A DNA stretch of 25,623 nt from Candidatus Hydrogenedentota bacterium (GTDB lineage: Bacteria > Hydrogenedentota > Hydrogenedentia > Hydrogenedentales > SLHB01). Below, in pieces: positions 127-25,623 of this stretch (the stretch's first letter is position 1; each line of letters begins with the position of its first letter). The notes beneath the pieces are model-generated. The model saw only the letters and a program-made list of their open reading frames with translations, was not told where the DNA came from and did no database searches. The position numbers and the translations under genes were made by a program. Location: NCBI GenBank assembly GCA_029974275.1, contig JARKSN010000115.1, positions 1-25,623 on the forward strand, given 5' to 3'.

Positions 127-2451
127 TCACCGGACGGTTACGTCCTTTGCGGCGACGATTGCGCCATAGGCCGCGTGCTCCCCAGCGACCAGGCTCTTCC
201 ACGCGCCATCTTTTTCGGCCCAGATCTGGGGCTGGGCGGCGCCGTGTGTGAAAAACTCCGGGTGCATCTTGGCGTTGGGCCGCATCGGCTCGCTGGTCTC
301 GTTGATGAACGCCAACGCGACTTCGAGTTTGTCCGAACCGGGCGCGAGGGTCATCGTGCGTTCCAGCGCGGCGCCCGAGGGCAATTGGGCGCGTATTGTC
401 AGGGAGTGGGCGTCCTTGGCCACGATTGTGTATGTATCCGCGGCCGGATGCTCGGGGACGCCCGGGGTGTTGACCCAGTCCTGCCAGGCGCCGCCGCCGA
501 CTCCATAGCGTTCGTAGCCGCGAAGCAGTTCGACGCCCAGTTTTTTGTCGCGCCACCGCAGCATGCTGCCATTCAGTCCCGGAGCGACCCACACGAGGTA
601 GCGTTCGTTCTCGATTTTTTCCAGCGTTGACTCGGCGTAGCGATCGGGCCGCTTGCCTTGAATGGTCTCGAGCCACAGTTCGACCGGCGAGAAGTCCATG
701 ATGGTCTTCATGCCGTGACGGCGCAGCAGCGCCAGATAGTCGTCCACGTCCAGCGAGGGCGGACGCTCGACGGTGATGCGGTTGTCCGCGACCGTAATTC
801 GAGGAGGACAGTTGAAGGCGGCGTATTCCACCGTGGTGTTCAACGTCTCGAGGCGGGTGCGGACCTCGTCCGAATGCACTGCGGCAAATGCCTCGACAAA
901 GAGGGCGCGCGCCTTTTCGACCGTGTCGTAGTCGTACCAGTCGCCGTGGTCAAAGCATCCCATGAACTGGCCGCCGTCGGACTGTTGACGTTTGGCAAGC
1001 AGTTGGATGTACTGCTTCACCTGCGGGGCGGCCTCCTGGTAGTACAGGCCGATCCACTCGTTCATGACGGCATCGAAATCGATGTCCAGATTCCACATGA
1101 GCTTGCTGAGCAGGTAGGCTCGCAGCGGCGCGAACTCGGCCGCCCTGTCGTACGCCCCCTGCGGAAACATGCCCTTGACCTTGTGCGCGGCAAGGAACTG
1201 CATGTTGGGTTGGATGACGTGAAAATTCGGGATCGGCGACTGGAAATTGTAGAAATTGGTCAAATAATCCCACACGTGCAGGCGCGGGGCCACCTTGGAC
1301 CACGTATCGATATCTTCCGCGAAACGGCGATTGGAAACCGATTTCGGGTCGCTGAACGGCCGCGAGAAGTCGCACTCGATGCTGCACAGCTTGATGATGA
1401 CGTTGTTGCGCGGCGTGATGGTCTTCGGGGGTTTGCGCGTATAGGTGTAGGCCAGCGTTTCGATGCGGTGCTCGGGATGGCTCGCCGCCAGGCGATCGGC
1501 CACCTTGTTCAGGCCCCACAGGACCGATCCCATGTGGCTGCCTTCGCGCTCGTCAATCTCCGCGCAGGTCGGACATTCGCACCAGTTGCCCCAATCCATC
1601 TGGCTGATGTGGTGAACCGTGTTGTCTGGATTGGCCGCGATGTTCTGTTCGATGCGGTCATAGAGGATATCCAGCACCTCCGGATGGGTCATGCAGATCT
1701 GGCCTTGTTGTCCGGGATGATCGCGGTGGTTGCTGTGGTCGCGCCAGTCGTAGGTCGGCGCGATCCGCTTGCCGTTGACCAGCGAGTAGTACTCGGGATG
1801 CTCCGCAAAGTACACCTCCGGCGGCACGTAACTGTAAGAGGTATGGCAACTGAAACTCGGCCCCGGAAGCCACCGGTGAACCTGCCGATAGTACGCGACG
1901 GCCTCCCGGTCGTCTTCCCTGCTGAAATACGTGGAGTAGCGGAACTCGAAATGCGGCTCGTGCCGGTAGTCGATAGCCGGAAGCGCCGTCGGCGCGGCCG
2001 GTATATGCGTGACGCCGGGAGCCAGCCATCGCACGCCTAGGTAGTCTTCTATGAACTGGTACACGGCATATAATGTGCCGTTCTGCGGGCCGCCTGCGAG
2101 AATAAGCTTGGGCGCACCGTCCTGGGTCAGGCTTTTGAGATAGATTTCCTGCGGCCCGAAGCGATCCGGATCGACGCCTTGCGGCCACGCGCCGGCGGGG
2201 ACGGCCTTGGCCCCGACCCAGATGGCCGGACCCTCTTGGGGGGCGGTCAGGATCTCGGGACGATGGCCGGTGACCTCGCCCCAGTAGCGCTGCAATTCTT
2301 CGGCAGCGAGTTTGTCCGAAGCCGGTGCGTCGGCGGCGACGACCAGCATGAAAGCGGGAAGCTGTGCTTGGGTCACTTTACTGTCCTCTGCCGCGTTCGC
2401 GGCCATGCCGGTTGCCAATGCCACACACGTCAACAATAGCGGTTTATACAT
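127..2451 (-). CDS. Secreted DUF4838-family glycoside hydrolase-like protein (774 aa; true C-terminus may lie further left)
   Basis: Signal peptide MYKPLLLTCVALATGMAANA; N-terminal GH20/GH67-N-like domain (AAEELQRY...GTLYAVYQFIEDYLGVRW); DUF4838-typical motifs FAEHPEYYSL, QICMTHP, CECPTC, TLAYTYT, LRAYLLSKLMWN. Confidence 0.8.
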   Translation of the reverse strand: MYKPLLLTCVALATGMAANAAEDSKVTQAQLPAFMLVVAADAPASDKLAAEELQRYWGEVTGHRPEILTAPQEGPAIWVGAKAVPAGAWPQGVDPDRFGPQEIYLKSLTQDGAPKLILAGGPQNGTLYAVYQFIEDYLGVRWLAPGVTHIPAAPTALPAIDYRHEPHFEFRYSTYFSREDDREAVAYYRQVHRWLPGPSFSCHTSYSYVPPEVYFAEHPEYYSLVNGKRIAPTYDWRDHSNHRDHPGQQGQICMTHPEVLDILYDRIEQNIAANPDNTVHHISQMDWGNWCECPTCAEIDEREGSHMGSVLWGLNKVADRLAASHPEHRIETLAYTYTRKPPKTITPRNNVIIKLCSIECDFSRPFSDPKSVSNRRFAEDIDTWSKVAPRLHVWDYLTNFYNFQSPIPNFHVIQPNMQFLAAHKVKGMFPQGAYDRAAEFAPLRAYLLSKLMWNLDIDFDAVMNEWIGLYYQEAAPQVKQYIQLLAKRQQSDGGQFMGCFDHGDWYDYDTVEKARALFVEAFAAVHSDEVRTRLETLNTTVEYAAFNCPPRITVADNRITVERPPSLDVDDYLALLRRHGMKTIMDFSPVELWLETIQGKRPDRYAESTLEKIENERYLVWVAPGLNGSMLRWRDKKLGVELLRGYERYGVGGGAWQDWVNTPGVPEHPAADTYTIVAKDAHSLTIRAQLPSGAALERTMTLAPGSDKLEVALAFINETSEPMRPNAKMHPEFFTHGAAQPQIWAEKDGAWKSLVAGEHAAYGAIVAAKDVTVR

Positions 2452-2489
2452 GTCCTTGCATCCTGTTTCTTCACCGAAGTCGATGGTGG

Positions 2490-2518
2490 ATTATGTACAC
2501 GTCTTCCCGAGGATGCAA
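2490..2518 (-). promoter_or_regulatory. Putative sigma70-type promoter for the DUF4838 gene
   Basis: Minus strand TTGCAT (2518-2513), 17 nt spacer, CATAAT (2495-2490), ~40 nt upstream of the ATG. Confidence 0.45.
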
Positions 2519-2692
2519 ACGGGGGATATGGCGCGGTTATCCCCCAATCGTTGGACCCTTCAGTTGATTGATTCTAGGATAATCGAGTACATCTCTATCA
2601 AGACTCGGATGAGATTATTGGATGCGGGTATGCGGCGCAGAGGGCGTCATGTCCCGAGGAGTGTAGAGCGCACGAATAGGGGAGGAGCCACA

Positions 2693-4192
2693 ATGGCGAA
2701 CAGGGTGTGGACAGCGATGCATGTGGCGGCGGGTTTGCTGATAGCCGTCGCCGCGACGGCGGACGCGTTTTCGGGTCTCGGGCTAAATGGCCTTGCCACG
2801 TTGCAGGACGGCCGCACGATGCGCGCGTCGTCGTGCGCCGAGAAAGATTGGCCGACCAACAACGCCGATGCGCGCCCCATTGAACCGGGACAGACGTTGG
2901 TCTTGGCCGATCTGAAGGGTCCAGGCGAGATTCGGCATATCTGGAACACCATCGCGATGGATCGCGAGGGGCCTCTCTACTCGAAAATGCTGGTTTTGCG
3001 GATGTATTGGGATGGCGAGACGAATCCTTCGGTCGAGTGTCCCATCGGCGATTTCTTTGGGATTGGCCATGGCGCGTGGGTTCCGTACGACAGCCTGCCG
3101 ATTCGGGTTACATCGGACGGACGGGGGCGCAACTGCTATTGGCCGATGCCGTTCGCGAAATCGGCGAAGATCACGGTGACGAACGAGGCGCGTCAGCGAT
3201 GTGATGCGTTCTATTACTACATCGACTGGCAAAAATTGCCTAAGCTCAGCAAGAAGACGGGCTATTTCCACGCGGTGTATCGCCAAGAATATCCGGCGAC
3301 GATGGGCAAAAATTATCTCATCGCCGATCTTCAGGGCAGGGGACAATATGTGGGCACGGTTCTGAATTGGCGTTCGCGCATGCCGAGTTGGCCGGGCGAA
3401 GGCGATGATTTTTTCTACATCGACGGCGAGCAGGAACCGAGTTTGCGCGGCACCGGCACGGAGGATTATTTCTGCGACGGATGGGGCTTCCGCAAGCAGG
3501 CGGGCATTTTCTACGGCGCGCCGCTGTCGGAATGGGGCGAGACAAACGGAAAAACTTCCGTCTATCGATGGCATATCGCCGATCCCGTGACGTTCGCGAA
3601 ATCGTTGCGCGTCGAGATCGAGCACAAGGGACCGGTCTTTGACGAGTACGGAAAAATGACGAGCCATTACGACGAGCGTCCGGATGATTATTCTTCGGTG
3701 GCGTTCTGGTATCAGAAAGAGCCCCACAAGCCCTTCGATCCGATGCCGGCGGGCTATGCGCGTCAATACTTTGATCCGCAACAGGCCATCGAGGGCGAGT
3801 CGCTGATCGCCGAGGCGTCTGCCACGGCGGGGGCCATCGTGAAGCAGGACCTTCCCATGATGAGCGGCGGGGCCCAGTTGCTTTGGGCCCCGGAGGCGCC
3901 GGGCCAGAGCGTGTCGGTTTCGGTTGCCGTTGTGGAAAAGGGGAGCTACGACCTTTTTGTCAGGCTAGGGCAAGCGCCGGACTATGGCGCTTGGCAGATT
4001 GAGGTGGATGGCAAAGCCGTGGGCGGCATTGTGGATTTGTATCAAGCGAACGCATCGATACGCGAAGTCTGTTTGGCGAATCTTCATCTTGAGGCGGGCG
4101 CTCATAGCGTGACGTTCGTGAACAAGGACAAGAACAAGGAGTCCAAGGGGTTTCTGCTAGGACTCGATGCCATGGTTTTCGCCGCTCGCTGA
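2693..4192 (+). CDS. GH172 / DUF2961 glycoside hydrolase with signal peptide and C-terminal CBM-like beta-sandwich (499 aa)
   Basis: Start moved from 2312 to ATG 2693 (GGAGGA at 2681-2686, signal peptide follows). DUF2961 motifs LRMYWDGETNPSVECPIGDFFG, GEGDDFFYIDGE, GTGTEDYF, YRWHIADPVTF, DDYSSVAFWYQ. Confidence 0.88.
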   Translation: MANRVWTAMHVAAGLLIAVAATADAFSGLGLNGLATLQDGRTMRASSCAEKDWPTNNADARPIEPGQTLVLADLKGPGEIRHIWNTIAMDREGPLYSKMLVLRMYWDGETNPSVECPIGDFFGIGHGAWVPYDSLPIRVTSDGRGRNCYWPMPFAKSAKITVTNEARQRCDAFYYYIDWQKLPKLSKKTGYFHAVYRQEYPATMGKNYLIADLQGRGQYVGTVLNWRSRMPSWPGEGDDFFYIDGEQEPSLRGTGTEDYFCDGWGFRKQAGIFYGAPLSEWGETNGKTSVYRWHIADPVTFAKSLRVEIEHKGPVFDEYGKMTSHYDERPDDYSSVAFWYQKEPHKPFDPMPAGYARQYFDPQQAIEGESLIAEASATAGAIVKQDLPMMSGGAQLLWAPEAPGQSVSVSVAVVEKGSYDLFVRLGQAPDYGAWQIEVDGKAVGGIVDLYQANASIREVCLANLHLEAGAHSVTFVNKDKNKESKGFLLGLDAMVFAAR

Positions 4193-4228
4193 GAGGACGC
4201 GAAAGACGTTCGCGAGCGACCGTGTTGA

Positions 4229-7420
<3,192 letters not shown>

Positions 7421-21998: not shown

Positions 21999-24050
21999 TC
22001 AGGATTCCTCCCGCACGACTTGCTGACTTGCCTGGAGGCGTTTCTCGGCAATAACCCGGCGAACCGTCTGTACGCTGGGATCGTCGTTGGAAGGACGCAC
22101 GATGCCGCCCTTGCCGTCGGCTACGCCGATGACCCTCGCGGGGTCTTTGACGCTGTCAACAACGATGTCCCCCGCACGCCCAATCAGCCCTCCCGCAACC
22201 ACAGGGACGCCGTCCCACGTTTCGCTGCCCATGCGCCCAAACACGATGCCCCGAAGGTTGATGAGTTCCAGTGCGGTCGCCGCGAGAGTCGACCGCATGT
22301 CCACGCGCACCACCTGAATCCCGCGTTCTTCCGCGGCCATGACGGCCTCCGGCGTGAGCGAACCGATGCCCCCGTCGTAGAGGAGCGCGCCCGGACGCAT
22401 GAGCCGCACCCAGTCCGGTCCCAGGATCGGATTGCGCGGCGATACGCACGCCACGGCGTCCATCTCCGGCAGGACTTCCTCCGGATCGGCAATGCCAATC
22501 GCGAAGCCGATGAACGATGCCGCTTCGGCCACGCGTTCGAATCCCGCCGGCGCGGACGCCTCCGCCCCTGCTTCCGCGAGCAACGCCAGCAAACGGGCCG
22601 TCAACCGGGGAACGCCTCGAACGAGAATCCGTTTGCCGCGCAGACTTCCGCCCAACAACAAGGCCAAATGACGCGCCGCCGCGCGCATCCACATTTCGTT
22701 ATCGCAATACGCCAAGAGAGCCGTCTTCTTCAACGTTCCTTCGGGGATGGGGCGATCCCCCGGATCAATCAGCACGTAGTCGACGACGCCCTCCGCCCAG
22801 CGCAGAACCGATTCCAACCATTCCGGTTCGGCAAGCATGATGTTCGAAAACGCGCAGCCGAATCCTGTTTCGACGGACGGCGACACGCTGGTCGTCTCGA
22901 ACGGCGTGACCACGACATTGAGCACGCTCGTCATCGCGAATTTTCGCGCTTTTTCCCGGAGTTCGCGCACGCGCGCCCGAACGAGCCCTTCGAACGTTTC
23001 CTCGGAAGACGCGGACGCTTCGCCAAGAGAAATCCGCAAGCTTGGACGAGGCCCCTCGCGGGCAAGTTCTTCGGCCAAACCTTCGACCAATTCTATTGGC
23101 GCGTTGATGGTGTCGCGTTCGCCCAGCCGCAGGATGAGATCGCGCGGATCGACGCCTGTCCGCGCCGCCGCCGTCAAGACCCGGCCCAAGAAGGAGGAAT
23201 GGAATTTCGCGCGCCCAAATGTCACGCCCAGGCCCGATAGCCCGCGCCGTCGCAACATCGGACGAACATACGCCTCCGAAATGTCCAACAAGCCGTTCAC
23301 GTCCATGTCAGGCACGAGACCGCGTTTTTGAAGAATCGCCACGAGCGCCTCGGTGACCGTGTTGCCCTCCGAACGCCCCATTCCTTGAAGGGAAGCGTCC
23401 ACGTAATCAACGCCTGCCTCGTGGGCCGCGATCGCGTTGGCCATTGCCAGCGACAGATTGTCGTGACCGTGAAAACCTATCCGCAGCCCGCAGGCCGCCC
23501 GCGCCGCCTCGACGTACGCGCGAATGTCTTCCGGAAACATGCAGCCCGCCGAGTCCACCAGACACACAACGTCCGCGCCGGCATCTTCCGCCTGACGCGC
23601 ACACACGCCGAATTGTTCCGGAGCGACCGCATACGACTTCATCAGGTTGCACCAGACTGTCAGGCCAAGTTTCTTGGCGATCGCCACGAAAGGCTGACTG
23701 GCGGCGATTTCGGTGATGTTGGTCCCCACGCGCACAAACCCCATGCCGCAGTCCGCCGCGAGCCGCAAATCGTCTTCCGCGCCAATGCCGGGAATGAAGA
23801 ACGCGCCGAATGCCGCCGTCCGCAATACCGCCGCTGCCGCGCGCAAATATGCTTCATCGCTGCTCGCCTGGCCTTCATGCCCGGCGCGCATTGCGCCCAG
23901 ACCCAGCCCATGCGCCACCTCGATGAGCCGAATGCCCGCCGATTCCAACGCCGATGCGATAACCGCTGTATCGTCCGCCGTGAACTGAAAATCAATGGCG
24001 TACGATCCATCCCGCAACGTCGTATCGAGTATCTCGATTCCATTCGCCAT
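21999..24050 (-). CDS. 4-hydroxy-2-oxovalerate aldolase-like (DRE-TIM/HMGL-like) protein fused to an uncharacterised ~340 aa C-terminal region
   Basis: DTTLRDG, IEVAHGLGLG, LVDSAG, GFHGHDNLSLAMANA, DASLQGMGRSEGN, HSSFL (DmpG communication-domain-like); the C-terminal half has a Rossmann-like segment LRGKRILVRG. Confidence 0.85.
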   Translation of the reverse strand: MANGIEILDTTLRDGSYAIDFQFTADDTAVIASALESAGIRLIEVAHGLGLGAMRAGHEGQASSDEAYLRAAAAVLRTAAFGAFFIPGIGAEDDLRLAADCGMGFVRVGTNITEIAASQPFVAIAKKLGLTVWCNLMKSYAVAPEQFGVCARQAEDAGADVVCLVDSAGCMFPEDIRAYVEAARAACGLRIGFHGHDNLSLAMANAIAAHEAGVDYVDASLQGMGRSEGNTVTEALVAILQKRGLVPDMDVNGLLDISEAYVRPMLRRRGLSGLGVTFGRAKFHSSFLGRVLTAAARTGVDPRDLILRLGERDTINAPIELVEGLAEELAREGPRPSLRISLGEASASSEETFEGLVRARVRELREKARKFAMTSVLNVVVTPFETTSVSPSVETGFGCAFSNIMLAEPEWLESVLRWAEGVVDYVLIDPGDRPIPEGTLKKTALLAYCDNEMWMRAAARHLALLLGGSLRGKRILVRGVPRLTARLLALLAEAGAEASAPAGFERVAEAASFIGFAIGIADPEEVLPEMDAVACVSPRNPILGPDWVRLMRPGALLYDGGIGSLTPEAVMAAEERGIQVVRVDMRSTLAATALELINLRGIVFGRMGSETWDGVPVVAGGLIGRAGDIVVDSVKDPARVIGVADGKGGIVRPSNDDPSVQTVRRVIAEKRLQASQQVVREES

Positions 24051-24056
24051 GCGAAT

Positions 24057-24085
24057 AGCATAGCATCGTTCCGTTATCGTTCCAA
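24057..24085 (-). promoter_or_regulatory. Putative extended -10 promoter positioned for a leaderless aldolase mRNA
   Basis: Minus strand TTGGAA (24085-24080), 17 nt spacer, TGc-TATGCT (24062-24057), 6 nt, ATG; no SD. Confidence 0.6.
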
Positions 24086-24181
24086 GGGATCATAGGGGCG
24101 GCAGCCGAAACGATCCGCAGCGATATGCGAAAAGCGCGCTTTCTGTCGCGTTTCACCCAAAAAGTGCACCCAGCTTTTCTT

Positions 24182-24190
24182 TGGTATAAT
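24182..24190 (+). promoter_or_regulatory. Consensus extended -10 element for the last gene
   Basis: TGgTATAAT, a perfect match, in an AT-richer intergenic stretch. Confidence 0.65.
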
Positions 24191-24334
24191 AGAGGGGGCG
24201 GTCGGCGTGTTTTGCTGCATCAAGTCGGGGATAAGATTCGTGAAGGCGGCGCGGCATCGGATGCGAACGACGGCGCGCACGCAACCGGGACATTGAGGAG
24301 ACGCTTGGGGCATGCAGTACGAGGTGGGCCTATT

Positions 24335-25623
24335 GTGACGCTGGGCAATGGCGAGAAACGTCCCGTTCCATTTCCCGAGCGCCGACGATCGGTCCGTATG
24401 CCGACAGCGCGACGAGCGTCGTTTTCGGCTCGCTTGCTGGCGGGCGTCCCGCGAGAAGGGATCGCGGTTGAATTGTCCCGCGAAGGTCTCCGGATTTGCA
24501 CGCGCATGCCGTTTCCGGTCGGAACGCTCATCGACGTGGAATTGGCCCCGCGAGATGAGGCGCGCGACAGCATGCCGATCCTGGTGCGAGGGGTTGTCTC
24601 TCATGTCACGGCGGGCGCCGATCGGGAATATGCGATGGGCGTTTACCTGCGGGCCGATAGGGAATCGAAACCGCGGAAGTTTGAGCGCGGCGAAATTCGA
24701 CTTGCCATGGCCAATGCGCTAGGCCGGCTTTCCGATTCGCATTTCGAGGAAACGGTGCCGGTTGCGCTTTCGTCGAAGGAATTCCGAGCCTTCCTGTTTG
24801 ATCCGGCGCATCGCGCGCGGGACCGAAGACGGCAGATGTGGGCCGCTTTGGCGTTGTTGGCGCTTTTGTTGCTTGCCGCGTTGCTGCTGGCGATGGGAAG
24901 CCCCCTCCGTCTTTCGGGGGGCATGGCGCTTGGCTCCGATAGCCAACCAGCGGCGGCGCGCTCTTTGGCCGCTTCAGGCAAACAAGACCCGCTTATGGGA
25001 TCCTTGACGTCATGGCCTGCTTGGAACATGCCGCGACGCGACGCGAACGAAACGGATCGAGCAACGGACGCATCTGTCACGCCGAAGGACGGCATCGTTT
25101 CCGCAAACCGCACCGGCTTGTCGCAAGGATCATCCGTGACGGACATTGCGCCTCTTGTGGAAAGACCGTCGCGAACAGACAACCCGGCGGCGCCGCTATT
25201 TTCAGAACGGCTGCGGATGGCGTCGTTGTCGGAGGCCCCCGCGGCGTTTCGTCCCGCGATCGAATCCGAGGCGAATGCCTCGCGGGCGCAACGCCAAGAT
25301 TGGGTCGCGGCGGCAGCGTTGGATCGTGTGCGCCCGGCGGTTGCTGCGGAGGACCGCGAATCTGCTTCGGATGACGACGGCCAAGCCGTTGCGAGCCCCG
25401 CTTCGTGGCCAATCGCCACGGAGACGAGCGATGCCGTCGGACAGGACCTGCGGCTCGAAGTTCGCAAAAGCGCCTATCAACTCGTGGCCTACCGCGGGAC
25501 AACGCCGCTCAAGACATTTCGCGTCGGCATTGGCGCGGATGACCTGACCCCAACGGGGTCTTTCACCGTGTCGAACAAGCTCGTCAATCCCGATTGGTTC
25601 CACCGGGGACAGATCGTAACCTT
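24335..25623 (+). CDS. PilZ-like domain + TM helix + linker + L,D-transpeptidase (YkuD) domain; 3'-truncated by the window end
   Basis: Not in the ORF track because it has no stop. Manual translation is open from GTG 24335 (GAGGTGG SD) to the end: ERRRSVR...ELSREGLRI...GVYLR; TM WAALALLALLLLAALLLAMG; then LRLEVRKSAYQLVAYRGTTPLKTFRVGIGADDLTPTGSFTVSNKLVNPDW. The frame is also open upstream to ATG 24125. Confidence 0.85.
   Translation, partial: MTLGNGEKRPVPFPERRRSVRMPTARRASFSARLLAGVPREGIAVELSREGLRICTRMPFPVGTLIDVELAPRDEARDSMPILVRGVVSHVTAGADREYAMGVYLRADRESKPRKFERGEIRLAMANALGRLSDSHFEETVPVALSSKEFRAFLFDPAHRARDRRRQMWAALALLALLLLAALLLAMGSPLRLSGGMALGSDSQPAAARSLAASGKQDPLMGSLTSWPAWNMPRRDANETDRATDASVTPKDGIVSANRTGLSQGSSVTDIAPLVERPSRTDNPAAPLFSERLRMASLSEAPAAFRPAIESEANASRAQRQDWVAAAALDRVRPAVAAEDRESASDDDGQAVASPASWPIATETSDAVGQDLRLEVRKSAYQLVAYRGTTPLKTFRVGIGADDLTPTGSFTVSNKLVNPDWFHRGQIVT

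Follow-up and report, generated by a model that had tools for sequence, protein, structure and literature searches.

A PilZ domain joined through a membrane helix to a YkuD-type L,D-transpeptidase domain in Hydrogenedentota: a candidate c-di-GMP-responsive envelope enzyme

The stretch of DNA analysed here, hereafter the window, is 25,623 nucleotides long and comprises an entire contig (JARKSN010000115.1, hereafter C34) of a Candidatus Hydrogenedentota bacterium, whose genome of 4.38 Mb is distributed over 342 contigs and has a G+C content of 60.6%. A gene at the right-hand end of the window encodes, in one protein of approximately 497 residues, a PilZ domain, a transmembrane (TM) helix, a linker and a YkuD domain, and there is very little doubt about this architecture. 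The stop-free frame extends from 24125 to 25621 and runs past the contig end; it has 499 codons, or 429 when counted from the GTG codon at 24335. The relative P0001 (497 amino acids), which shares 95% amino acid identity with the window protein at 100% query coverage, served for comparison throughout. The features of the gene are as follows.

24321-24337, plus strand: Shine-Dalgarno-like GAGGTGGG (24321-24328, 7-14 bases upstream of the GTG) and the likely GTG start codon (24335-24337), read directly.
24335-25623, plus strand: open reading frame (ORF) encoding PilZ, TM helix, linker and YkuD; the first 428-429 of approximately 497 codons, truncated by the end of contig C34.
24377-24397, plus strand: ERRRSVR (residues 15-21), the RRxxxR c-di-GMP-binding motif of PilZ, read directly; a profile alignment puts it on QRRAAPR of BcsA.
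24398-24649, plus strand: six-stranded PilZ beta-barrel (residues 22-105), predicted by an AlphaFold2 model and Foldseek.
24470-24487, plus strand: ELSREG (residues 46-51), the second PilZ motif (D/N)xSxxG with E at its first position, read directly.
24686-24736, plus strand: predicted post-barrel helix (residues 118-134), where canonical PilZ has its C-terminal helix; full-length model of P0001, with a predicted local distance difference test (pLDDT) score of 60-78 over this block.
24815-24898, plus strand: basic patch RARDRRRQ, then one TM helix predicted from hydropathy, with hydrophobic core residues 169-188 (24839-24898); modelled helix at residues 160-187.
24899-25447, plus strand: putative periplasmic linker (residues 189-371), Ala/Ser/Pro-rich and mostly disordered in the P0001 model, with a helical hairpin at residues 284-317 (25184-25285).
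25448-25623, plus strand: N-terminal part of the YkuD domain (residues 372-429), with Pfam PF03734 on residues 373-422; the final 2-5 bases are doubtful.
G000:C91:27427-27633 (contig C91 of the same genome), minus strand: the last 69 codons of the gene with its stop codon; the frame opens with KAGDPGNPLGKYWMGF and includes YGIH...GRGCIRIRHED.

These positions agree with those of the first-pass annotation, which had been made from the letters of the window and a list of its ORFs. It had reported a single uninterrupted frame of at least 429 codons with ERRRSVR, ELSREG, a basic patch, a TM helix at 24839-24898, an Ala/Ser/Pro-rich linker and the start of a YkuD domain, together with a beta-rich domain ending at approximately 24650.

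Translation likely starts at GTG 24335, because GAGGTGGG lies upstream of it, P0001 begins at the same codon, and orthologues carry only approximately 10-20 residues ahead of the ERR motif. With the alternative in-frame start, an ATG at 24125, the protein would be 70 residues longer, and this extension is common to no relative except a sister strain. The start of the sister-strain gene (94-95% identical) differs between public gene calls, which give proteins of 567 amino acids (upstream ATG), 497 amino acids (GTG) and 440 amino acids (M58); this disagreement fits the earlier remark that the ORF list had missed the gene. The 440-amino-acid NCBI call begins downstream of both PilZ motifs (the disputed region is window 24125-24507), and its omission of both motifs accounts for the plain annotation as an L,D-transpeptidase.

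The YkuD domain begins at approximately 25448 with KTFRVGIG...NKLVNPDW. Pfam YkuD (PF03734, cut-off 23.4 bits) matches window residues 373-422 with 27.7 bits (E = 4.7e-6), so that the domain read by eye passes the profile cut-off, and the whole domain occupies residues 373-495 of P0001 (63.9 bits, profile positions 3-146). A YkuD search of the whole genome retrieved an open frame of 69 codons that abuts the end of contig C91 (profile positions 87-146, 32.4 bits), which is 96% identical to the end of P0001 and stops at the same position. P0001 crosses the junction, reading ...NPDWFHRGQIVKAGAPGNPLGKYWMGF..., and the two contig ends therefore meet within one or two codons. The C91 fragment contains YGIH...GRGCIR, the catalytic arrangement His-x15-Cys with GC(I/V)R. 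The first-pass annotation had placed this motif beyond the window; it is indeed absent from the window and present on C91, but what separates the two parts is the assembly, since the window is the whole contig.

H456 and C472 of the fusion align with the catalytic His and Cys of Bacillus subtilis YkuD. The full-length model of P0001, used as a stand-in for the window protein, has pLDDT values of 93-98 over residues 372-497. The best structural match of the modelled YkuD domain is B. subtilis YkuD (1y7m_A; E = 3.1e-10, root-mean-square deviation 1.5, 129 columns, 29% identity), followed by the L,D-transpeptidases of K. pneumoniae, E. faecium, mycobacteria and V. cholerae and by YcbB. B. subtilis YkuD is also the best solved relative by sequence (E = 2e-6). 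The C-terminal domain is thus predicted to be an L,D-transpeptidase of the YkuD type in which the active-site His and Cys are both present.

Window residues 1-122 were aligned with 18 orthologous N-terminal domains from related genomes (19 sequences in all). From this alignment the N-terminal domain was modelled with AlphaFold2 as six strands (residues 22-32, 40-47, 51-56, 65-70, 82-93 and 99-105), with a pLDDT of 84.4 for the model and 91-97 over the strand blocks. Both the barrel and the C-terminal helix of canonical PilZ are modelled, the helix (residues 118-134) at moderate confidence. A Foldseek search against the PDB gave 10 matches at E≤0.001, all of them PilZ chains, and 26 of the first 27 among the matches listed are PilZ structures; the best are solved PilZ domains, most of them bound to bis-(3',5')-cyclic dimeric guanosine monophosphate (c-di-GMP). 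The best match is BcsA with c-di-GMP (4p00_A, E = 1.6e-5). VCA0042 (2rde), MotI/DgrA (5vx6), Alg44 (4rt0) and YcgR (5y6g) were also matched, as were the PilZ domain of K. xylinus CeSA, the P. aeruginosa PilZ domain 4xrn, PA0012, MrkH and PlzA.

A search of the PDB with the profile of the 19 N-terminal domains likewise has the PilZ domain of BcsA as its best match, over positions 5-101, with ERRxxxR aligned to QRRAAPR and the DxSxxG block to DASTSG. Since this sequence-profile match is weak (E = 0.062), the identity of the domain was settled by fold comparison. Residues 43-110 of P0001 match the PilZ-like model TIGR02266 with E = 9.9e-6, under the cut-off of that model. Based on the fold match, the detection of Pfam PilZ in most relatives (see below) and the family consensus ERRxxxR...DxSxxG, the predicted fold of the N-terminal domain is PilZ, the c-di-GMP receptor fold. 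The window protein has the RxxxR motif ahead of the barrel, its ERRRSVR aligning with the consensus ERRxxxR. In the second motif, ELSREG, the S and G are kept and E stands in the D/N position. The PilZ signature proposed in the first-pass annotation therefore stands for RxxxR and deviates at the second motif, as that annotation had itself flagged.

The family was collected by a phmmer search with P0001 against 1.84 billion representatives, which returned 4094 matches at E≤1e-3, 96 of them at E≤1e-30. The best 150 of the 4094 were taken; 130 proteins of at least 380 amino acids were kept and 20 shorter ones were dropped as fragments. Pfam YkuD is found in all 130 full-length relatives and Pfam PilZ in 110 of them at E≤0.001 (86/100 and 24/30), for example in P0002 with 35.3 bits. 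The consensus order is ERRxxxR, approximately 24 residues, DxSxxG, barrel, basic patch, hydrophobic helix, TPR-like linker and YkuD. This order of parts recurs in the 130 full-length relatives, and chance is therefore excluded as the origin of the fusion.

Within the N-terminal domain, R17 is kept in 106 of the 130 relatives, R21 in 107, S48 in 109 and G51 in 122, and position 46 is D in 98, N in 16 and E in 5 (D/N/E in 119). The combined pattern RxxxR-(15-35)-[DNE]xSxxG occurs in 95/130. The proteins missed by it either have a called start that falls past the first motif or belong to a sub-group without both motifs (P0073, P0100, P0101 and P0127). In the YkuD domain, H456 and C472 are invariant (130/130 each) and R474 is kept in 125. 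Mean pairwise identity is 0.31 in the PilZ barrel, 0.16 in the segment after it, 0.30 in the membrane helix, 0.19 in the linker and 0.51 in YkuD. The column conservation of R17, R21, D/N/E46, S48 and G51 indicates that, in most of the family, selection acts on the putative ligand-binding residues of the sensor.

Hydropathy in the window protein peaks, on the Kyte-Doolittle scale, at 2.74 over the 19 residues from residue 170 onwards. Five K+R lie within the 15 residues ahead of the helix and none within the 15 that follow it. A hydrophobic helix (19-residue Kyte-Doolittle window ≥1.6) is found in 126 of the 130 relatives; the 15 residues on its N-side have a mean of 4.6 K+R versus 1.9 for the C-side. 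In 116 relatives K+R are more frequent on the N-side, in 9 the two sides are equal and in 5 the N-side has fewer. The single helix and this positive-inside bias support an N-in, C-out single pass, with a putatively cytoplasmic PilZ domain and a putatively periplasmic YkuD domain, the same topology as proposed in the first-pass annotation. In the 105 of the 130 relatives where the linker could be measured, its median length is 172 residues (range 81-259). In the full-length P0001 model its residues 226-280 and 317-366 have pLDDT values below 50, and helices are modelled at 284-297 and 302-317. Most relatives carry TPR-like consensus repeats in the linker, a handful of which reach Pfam TPR models.

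The distribution of the fusion was examined in 135 Hydrogenedentota genomes. The 91 rows of matches to the N-terminal profile were paired with 79 YkuD rows (all those with E≤1.7e-17) when they agreed in genome, contig, strand and frame length. By this pairing, 72 of the 135 genomes, the window genome included, encode the fusion in a single open frame, which answers the concern that the two halves might be separate genes. In six more genomes an orthologue-grade YkuD match has no N-terminal partner in its frame; most of these frames are short, as would fit contig ends, and in G005, G044 and G111 the two halves lie on separate contigs. The N-terminal profile, which was built partly from the same genomes, is matched in 81/135 at E≤1e-8, and some YkuD match to P0001 is present in 133/135. 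Families f3 (0/23) and f8 (0/10) have no N-terminal-profile match at E≤1e-8; their YkuD matches to P0001 are weak (E approximately 1e-9 to 1e-16) and are read as a probable paralogue.

A peptide-pattern search of the contigs of named genomes, using narrow patterns, retrieved a single locus (L001) from a Candidatus Hydrogenedentota metagenome-assembled genome; its match coordinates are the same as those of G127, a genome of the same family as the window genome. The named members of the sequence cluster, a small sample (n = 4), are all Hydrogenedentota/Hydrogenedentes. Judging from these counts, which cover the 135 genomes of the phylum, the fusion is conserved in one uncultured phylum, Hydrogenedentota. 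The sequencing runs that contain the window stretch are wastewater, activated-sludge and anaerobic-digester metagenomes, and four runs, from three studies, contain at least half of the sampled words of the window. Positions 25364-25569 are also matched, without differences, by a contig of 206 bases from run X17, a metatranscriptomic library of activated sludge; this contig records presence in an RNA library rather than transcription, and is a weak hint of expression.

The closest known design is that of the P. aeruginosa alginate co-polymerase Alg44 (4rt0, 4rt1), in which a cytoplasmic N-terminal PilZ domain leads through a helix and a membrane span to a C-terminal domain on the far side of the membrane, as in the fusion. 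The output of Alg44 requires c-di-GMP binding to its PilZ domain, and Alg44 PilZ structures are among the Foldseek matches of the fusion. The outer domain of Alg44, however, is HlyD/MFP-like, non-enzymatic and part of a polysaccharide synthase complex, whereas that of the fusion is a stand-alone YkuD enzyme on a linker of approximately 180 residues, and the fusion gene has no nearby synthase partner gene, unlike an Alg44-type operon. The fusion is therefore Alg44-like in its wiring and not a member of the Alg44-type co-polymerases, because its outer domain is YkuD and it has neither an HlyD/MFP domain nor a polysaccharide synthase operon. In passages of a PilZ survey (bioRxiv 10.1101/814665), Alg44 is an HlyD-family protein with PilZ fused at its N-terminus, the C-terminal helices of two Alg44 PilZ monomers are reported to form a dimer, and a C-terminal helix is assigned to canonical PilZ domains. 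These passages make no mention of transpeptidase, YkuD, peptidoglycan or periplasmic; the supplementary tables or Pfam lists of the survey could include the fusion.

The PilZ domain of BcsA (4p00, 5ej1, 4hg6) is the best structural and profile match to the N-terminus of the fusion, and its RRxxxR and DxSxxG motifs align. In BcsA, however, the PilZ domain is C-terminal and gates a cytoplasmic glycosyltransferase site in the same protein, and there is no trans-membrane signalling to a periplasmic enzyme. B. subtilis YkuD (1y7m), Ldtfm (1zat), LdtMt2 and E. coli YcbB (6ntw) have the catalytic fold, the His-x15-Cys arrangement and the GC(I/V)R motif found in the fusion. The known enzymes carry LysM, PG_binding, Ig-like or scaffold domains together with a signal peptide or lipobox; the fusion instead has PilZ and a TM helix. 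Control of L,D-transpeptidases is mostly transcriptional in known cases, and to our knowledge none of these enzymes has a cytoplasmic nucleotide-sensor domain.

Full-text literature searches found no description of a PilZ-YkuD architecture, which the first-pass annotation had likewise not recognised as characterised. In one paper that names PilZ and YkuD together, YkuD is only a neighbour within a SpoT cluster, and the pair PilZ and ErfK gave no literature match. In the literature on c-di-GMP and L,D-transpeptidases, and on PilZ architectures and peptidoglycan, no title or abstract deals with such a fusion. Every NCBIfam match stays under the cut-off of its model, and the fusion protein thus belongs to no curated family there. 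The ESM Atlas gave no usable match, as only a version starting at residue 58 is present. Members of the sequence cluster are publicly named 'L,D-transpeptidase', 'L,D-transpeptidase family protein' or 'hypothetical protein'. What is new is an L,D-transpeptidase output on Alg44-like PilZ wiring, annotated publicly without its sensor domain.

We consider the best explanation, with a probability of roughly 0.55, to be that the fusion is a single-pass inner-membrane protein in which c-di-GMP at the PilZ domain alters the action of the tethered periplasmic enzyme on peptidoglycan. The window genome has c-di-GMP enzymes (nine GGDEF matches and one EAL match) and ten other PilZ matches over the cut-off. 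In the proposed sequence of events, c-di-GMP from the GGDEF enzymes of the cell would bind the RRxxxR / (D/N/E)xSxxG site. The bound PilZ domain would then change the self-association of the anchored protein, as in the Alg44 PilZ dimer, or its cytoplasmic or membrane partners. Altered clustering, placement or stability of the tethered enzyme might in turn change the local rate of L,D-transpeptidation, with YkuD acting on peptidoglycan stem peptides to form 3-3 cross-links or to attach proteins. An effect on self-association or partners appears likeliest, since allosteric signals would travel poorly through one helix and a flexible linker. We infer both the transfer of the signal across the membrane and the reaction catalysed.

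Confidence differs between the parts of this reading. Binding of c-di-GMP across the family is highly probable, and binding by the E-variant window protein is slightly favoured. That c-di-GMP really controls the enzyme has somewhat less than an even chance. A stronger formulation, in which a phylum-wide one-protein effector lets cytoplasmic c-di-GMP directly and post-translationally control a periplasmic L,D-transpeptidase through ligand-driven dimerisation or clustering of the PilZ-helix-TM part, is tentative and rather doubtful.

Several observations weigh against the best explanation, and the gene neighbourhood offers no clue to function. One helix followed by approximately 180 residues of largely disordered linker offers no clear path for allosteric signalling. 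No GGDEF, EAL or peptidoglycan gene adjoins the fusion gene in the window or on C91. In 13 of 21 related loci (1.5-kb flanks) the next gene downstream on the same strand encodes a BrkB/YihY-family membrane protein (PF03631), for example at L003:1-1446 (minus strand) and L001:2360-3217 (plus strand), with 11 further loci; in the window genome the sole BrkB/YihY match is on contig C59, not beside C91. The BrkB/YihY protein of L003 also has a weak C-terminal Rrf2-like match. The window protein is a divergent member of its family, with E46, A458 and G469. Its YkuD domain is slightly atypical in that A458 replaces the T found in 118 of the 130 relatives and G469 the S found in 116.

It is possible, if unlikely on balance, that the sensor works as proposed while the YkuD domain forms no 3-3 cross-links and serves to anchor an outer-membrane protein or lipoprotein on peptidoglycan or to shorten stem peptides, in which case c-di-GMP would tune envelope tethering and not cross-linking. 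YkuD-fold enzymes as a class carry out cross-linking, protein attachment and stem-peptide trimming (as L,D-carboxypeptidase/endopeptidase). The YkuD domain of the fusion is accompanied by no peptidoglycan-binding module, LysM being found in 1 of the 130 relatives. The NCBIfam models closest to the YkuD part are those of E. coli-type L,D-transpeptidases (NF047955 LdtE, NF007563 and NF007612), all far under their cut-offs, and a weak match to the ElsL carboxypeptidase occurs in P0002 and P0005, not in P0001. The fold comparison points the other way, with B. subtilis YkuD as the best match and the genuine cross-linkers Ldtfm, LdtMt1/2 and YcbB after it; sequence and structure here do not tell the YkuD-type activities apart.

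An unlikely alternative is that the protein is an anchored L,D-transpeptidase whose PilZ fold no longer senses c-di-GMP in this lineage and acts only as an anchor or as an oligomerisation, partner-docking or localisation module. Pfam PilZ (PF07238, gathering score 22.5 bits) has no match to the window protein or P0001 even at E≤1, and the whole-genome PilZ scan did not list the fusion locus; of the PilZ assignment made in the first-pass annotation, the profile match thus failed and the barrel was recovered by structure prediction and Foldseek. The E at position 46 is shared with only 5 of the 130 relatives. A related sub-lineage (L001:675-2318, plus strand, and the motif-less P0073, P0100, P0101 and P0127) keeps the PilZ fold, TM helix and YkuD in proteins of 541-569 amino acids and has lost both RxxxR and DxSxxG. 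It includes the genus g30 (G126-G133) of the same GTDB family. Since this sub-lineage retains the fusion, the PilZ domain can evidently persist without ligand binding. Against this, RRxxxR, S48 and G51 are all intact in the window protein, E retains the carboxylate of D, and the motifs are strongly conserved across the family. Passages of the PilZ survey bear on both sides, reporting that some stand-alone PilZ domains have lost binding and that PilZ domains in fusion proteins retain it (bioRxiv 10.1101/814665).

It is very improbable that a frameshift or insertion at the C34/C91 junction has made the gene a pseudogene in the window genome, leaving a working fusion only in relatives, because the C91 fragment keeps its open frame with the end and stop of P0001, and discounting 2-5 end bases suffices to restore the gene. 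An end-to-end join with no bases dropped from the C34 end gives a frameshifted frame of 508 codons without GC(I/V)R. Only dropping 2 or 5 terminal bases of C34 gives an in-frame join to C91 (498 and 497 codons, respectively), with the motif back in both cases. In the public runs X1, X2 and X3 the contigs stop at 25584, 25619 and 25505, respectively, without bridging the junction; metagenome contigs, however, often break at strain variation, and those of X2 and X3 break elsewhere in the gene too. An insertion sequence or repeat at the break was considered and set aside, as no other contig of the genome has a 17-mer in common with either end. The C34 end (25619-25623) reads ...GTAACCTT and the continuation at G000:C91:27633 starts AAGGCC.... 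CCTT is the reverse complement of AAGG, the first four bases of the continuation, so the last few bases of C34 look like a fold-back artefact at the contig end.

The surroundings of the gene in the window are mainly carbohydrate and housekeeping genes, including glycoside hydrolases, sugar-nucleotide enzymes and pyrimidine genes. The features named individually are listed below.

127-2451, minus strand: DUF4838 (Pfam).
2312-4192, plus strand: DUF2961 (Pfam).
4238-7420, plus strand: five-domain GH2 beta-galactosidase (Pfam).
21999-24050, minus strand: divergent upstream neighbour of the fusion gene, a 683-amino-acid HMGL-like/DmpG-like protein; Pfam HMGL-like and DmpG communication domain, in the first approximately 316 residues only.

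The C-terminal approximately 365 residues of the 683-amino-acid neighbour have no Pfam match at E≤0.001. A long antisense frame (4157-6745) without a Pfam match is probably the shadow of the GC-rich gene opposite it. Downstream of the fusion gene, C91 carries a gene for a 651-amino-acid protein without a Pfam name and genes that, on a by-eye reading of their translations, resemble an MFS-type transporter, a HAD hydrolase and an amidotransferase. A promoter and terminator scan of 23950-24450 gave 0 sites; it used a sigma-70-type consensus only and is uninformative for this phylum. Elsewhere in the genome, the closest other match to the N-terminal profile is a stand-alone PilZ frame of 164 codons (G000:C28:45942-46229, plus strand; E = 6.4e-9), and other genomes of the phylum have similar frames of 156-187 codons.

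Whether bacteria live as motile or sessile cells is set mainly by c-di-GMP, whose known direct protein targets act in flagella, pili, polysaccharide synthases, adhesins and transcription. L,D-transpeptidases change the architecture of the cell wall and also affect stress tolerance and susceptibility to beta-lactams. In the full-text literature searches, no peptidoglycan cross-linking enzyme turned up that is directly coupled to a c-di-GMP receptor. The conserved fusion offers a clear hypothesis and compact objects on which to test it, namely a PilZ domain of approximately 140 residues and an enzyme domain of approximately 125 residues. Natural variants are available for comparison, with D, N or E at the ligand site, and the motif-less sub-lineage forms a natural 'ligand-blind' set. 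The fusion may represent an unstudied way of carrying c-di-GMP signals into the envelope. If c-di-GMP control of the tethered enzyme is true, it would be the first case of a second messenger directly controlling peptidoglycan cross-linking or envelope tethering, and PilZ receptors would gain a new output class.

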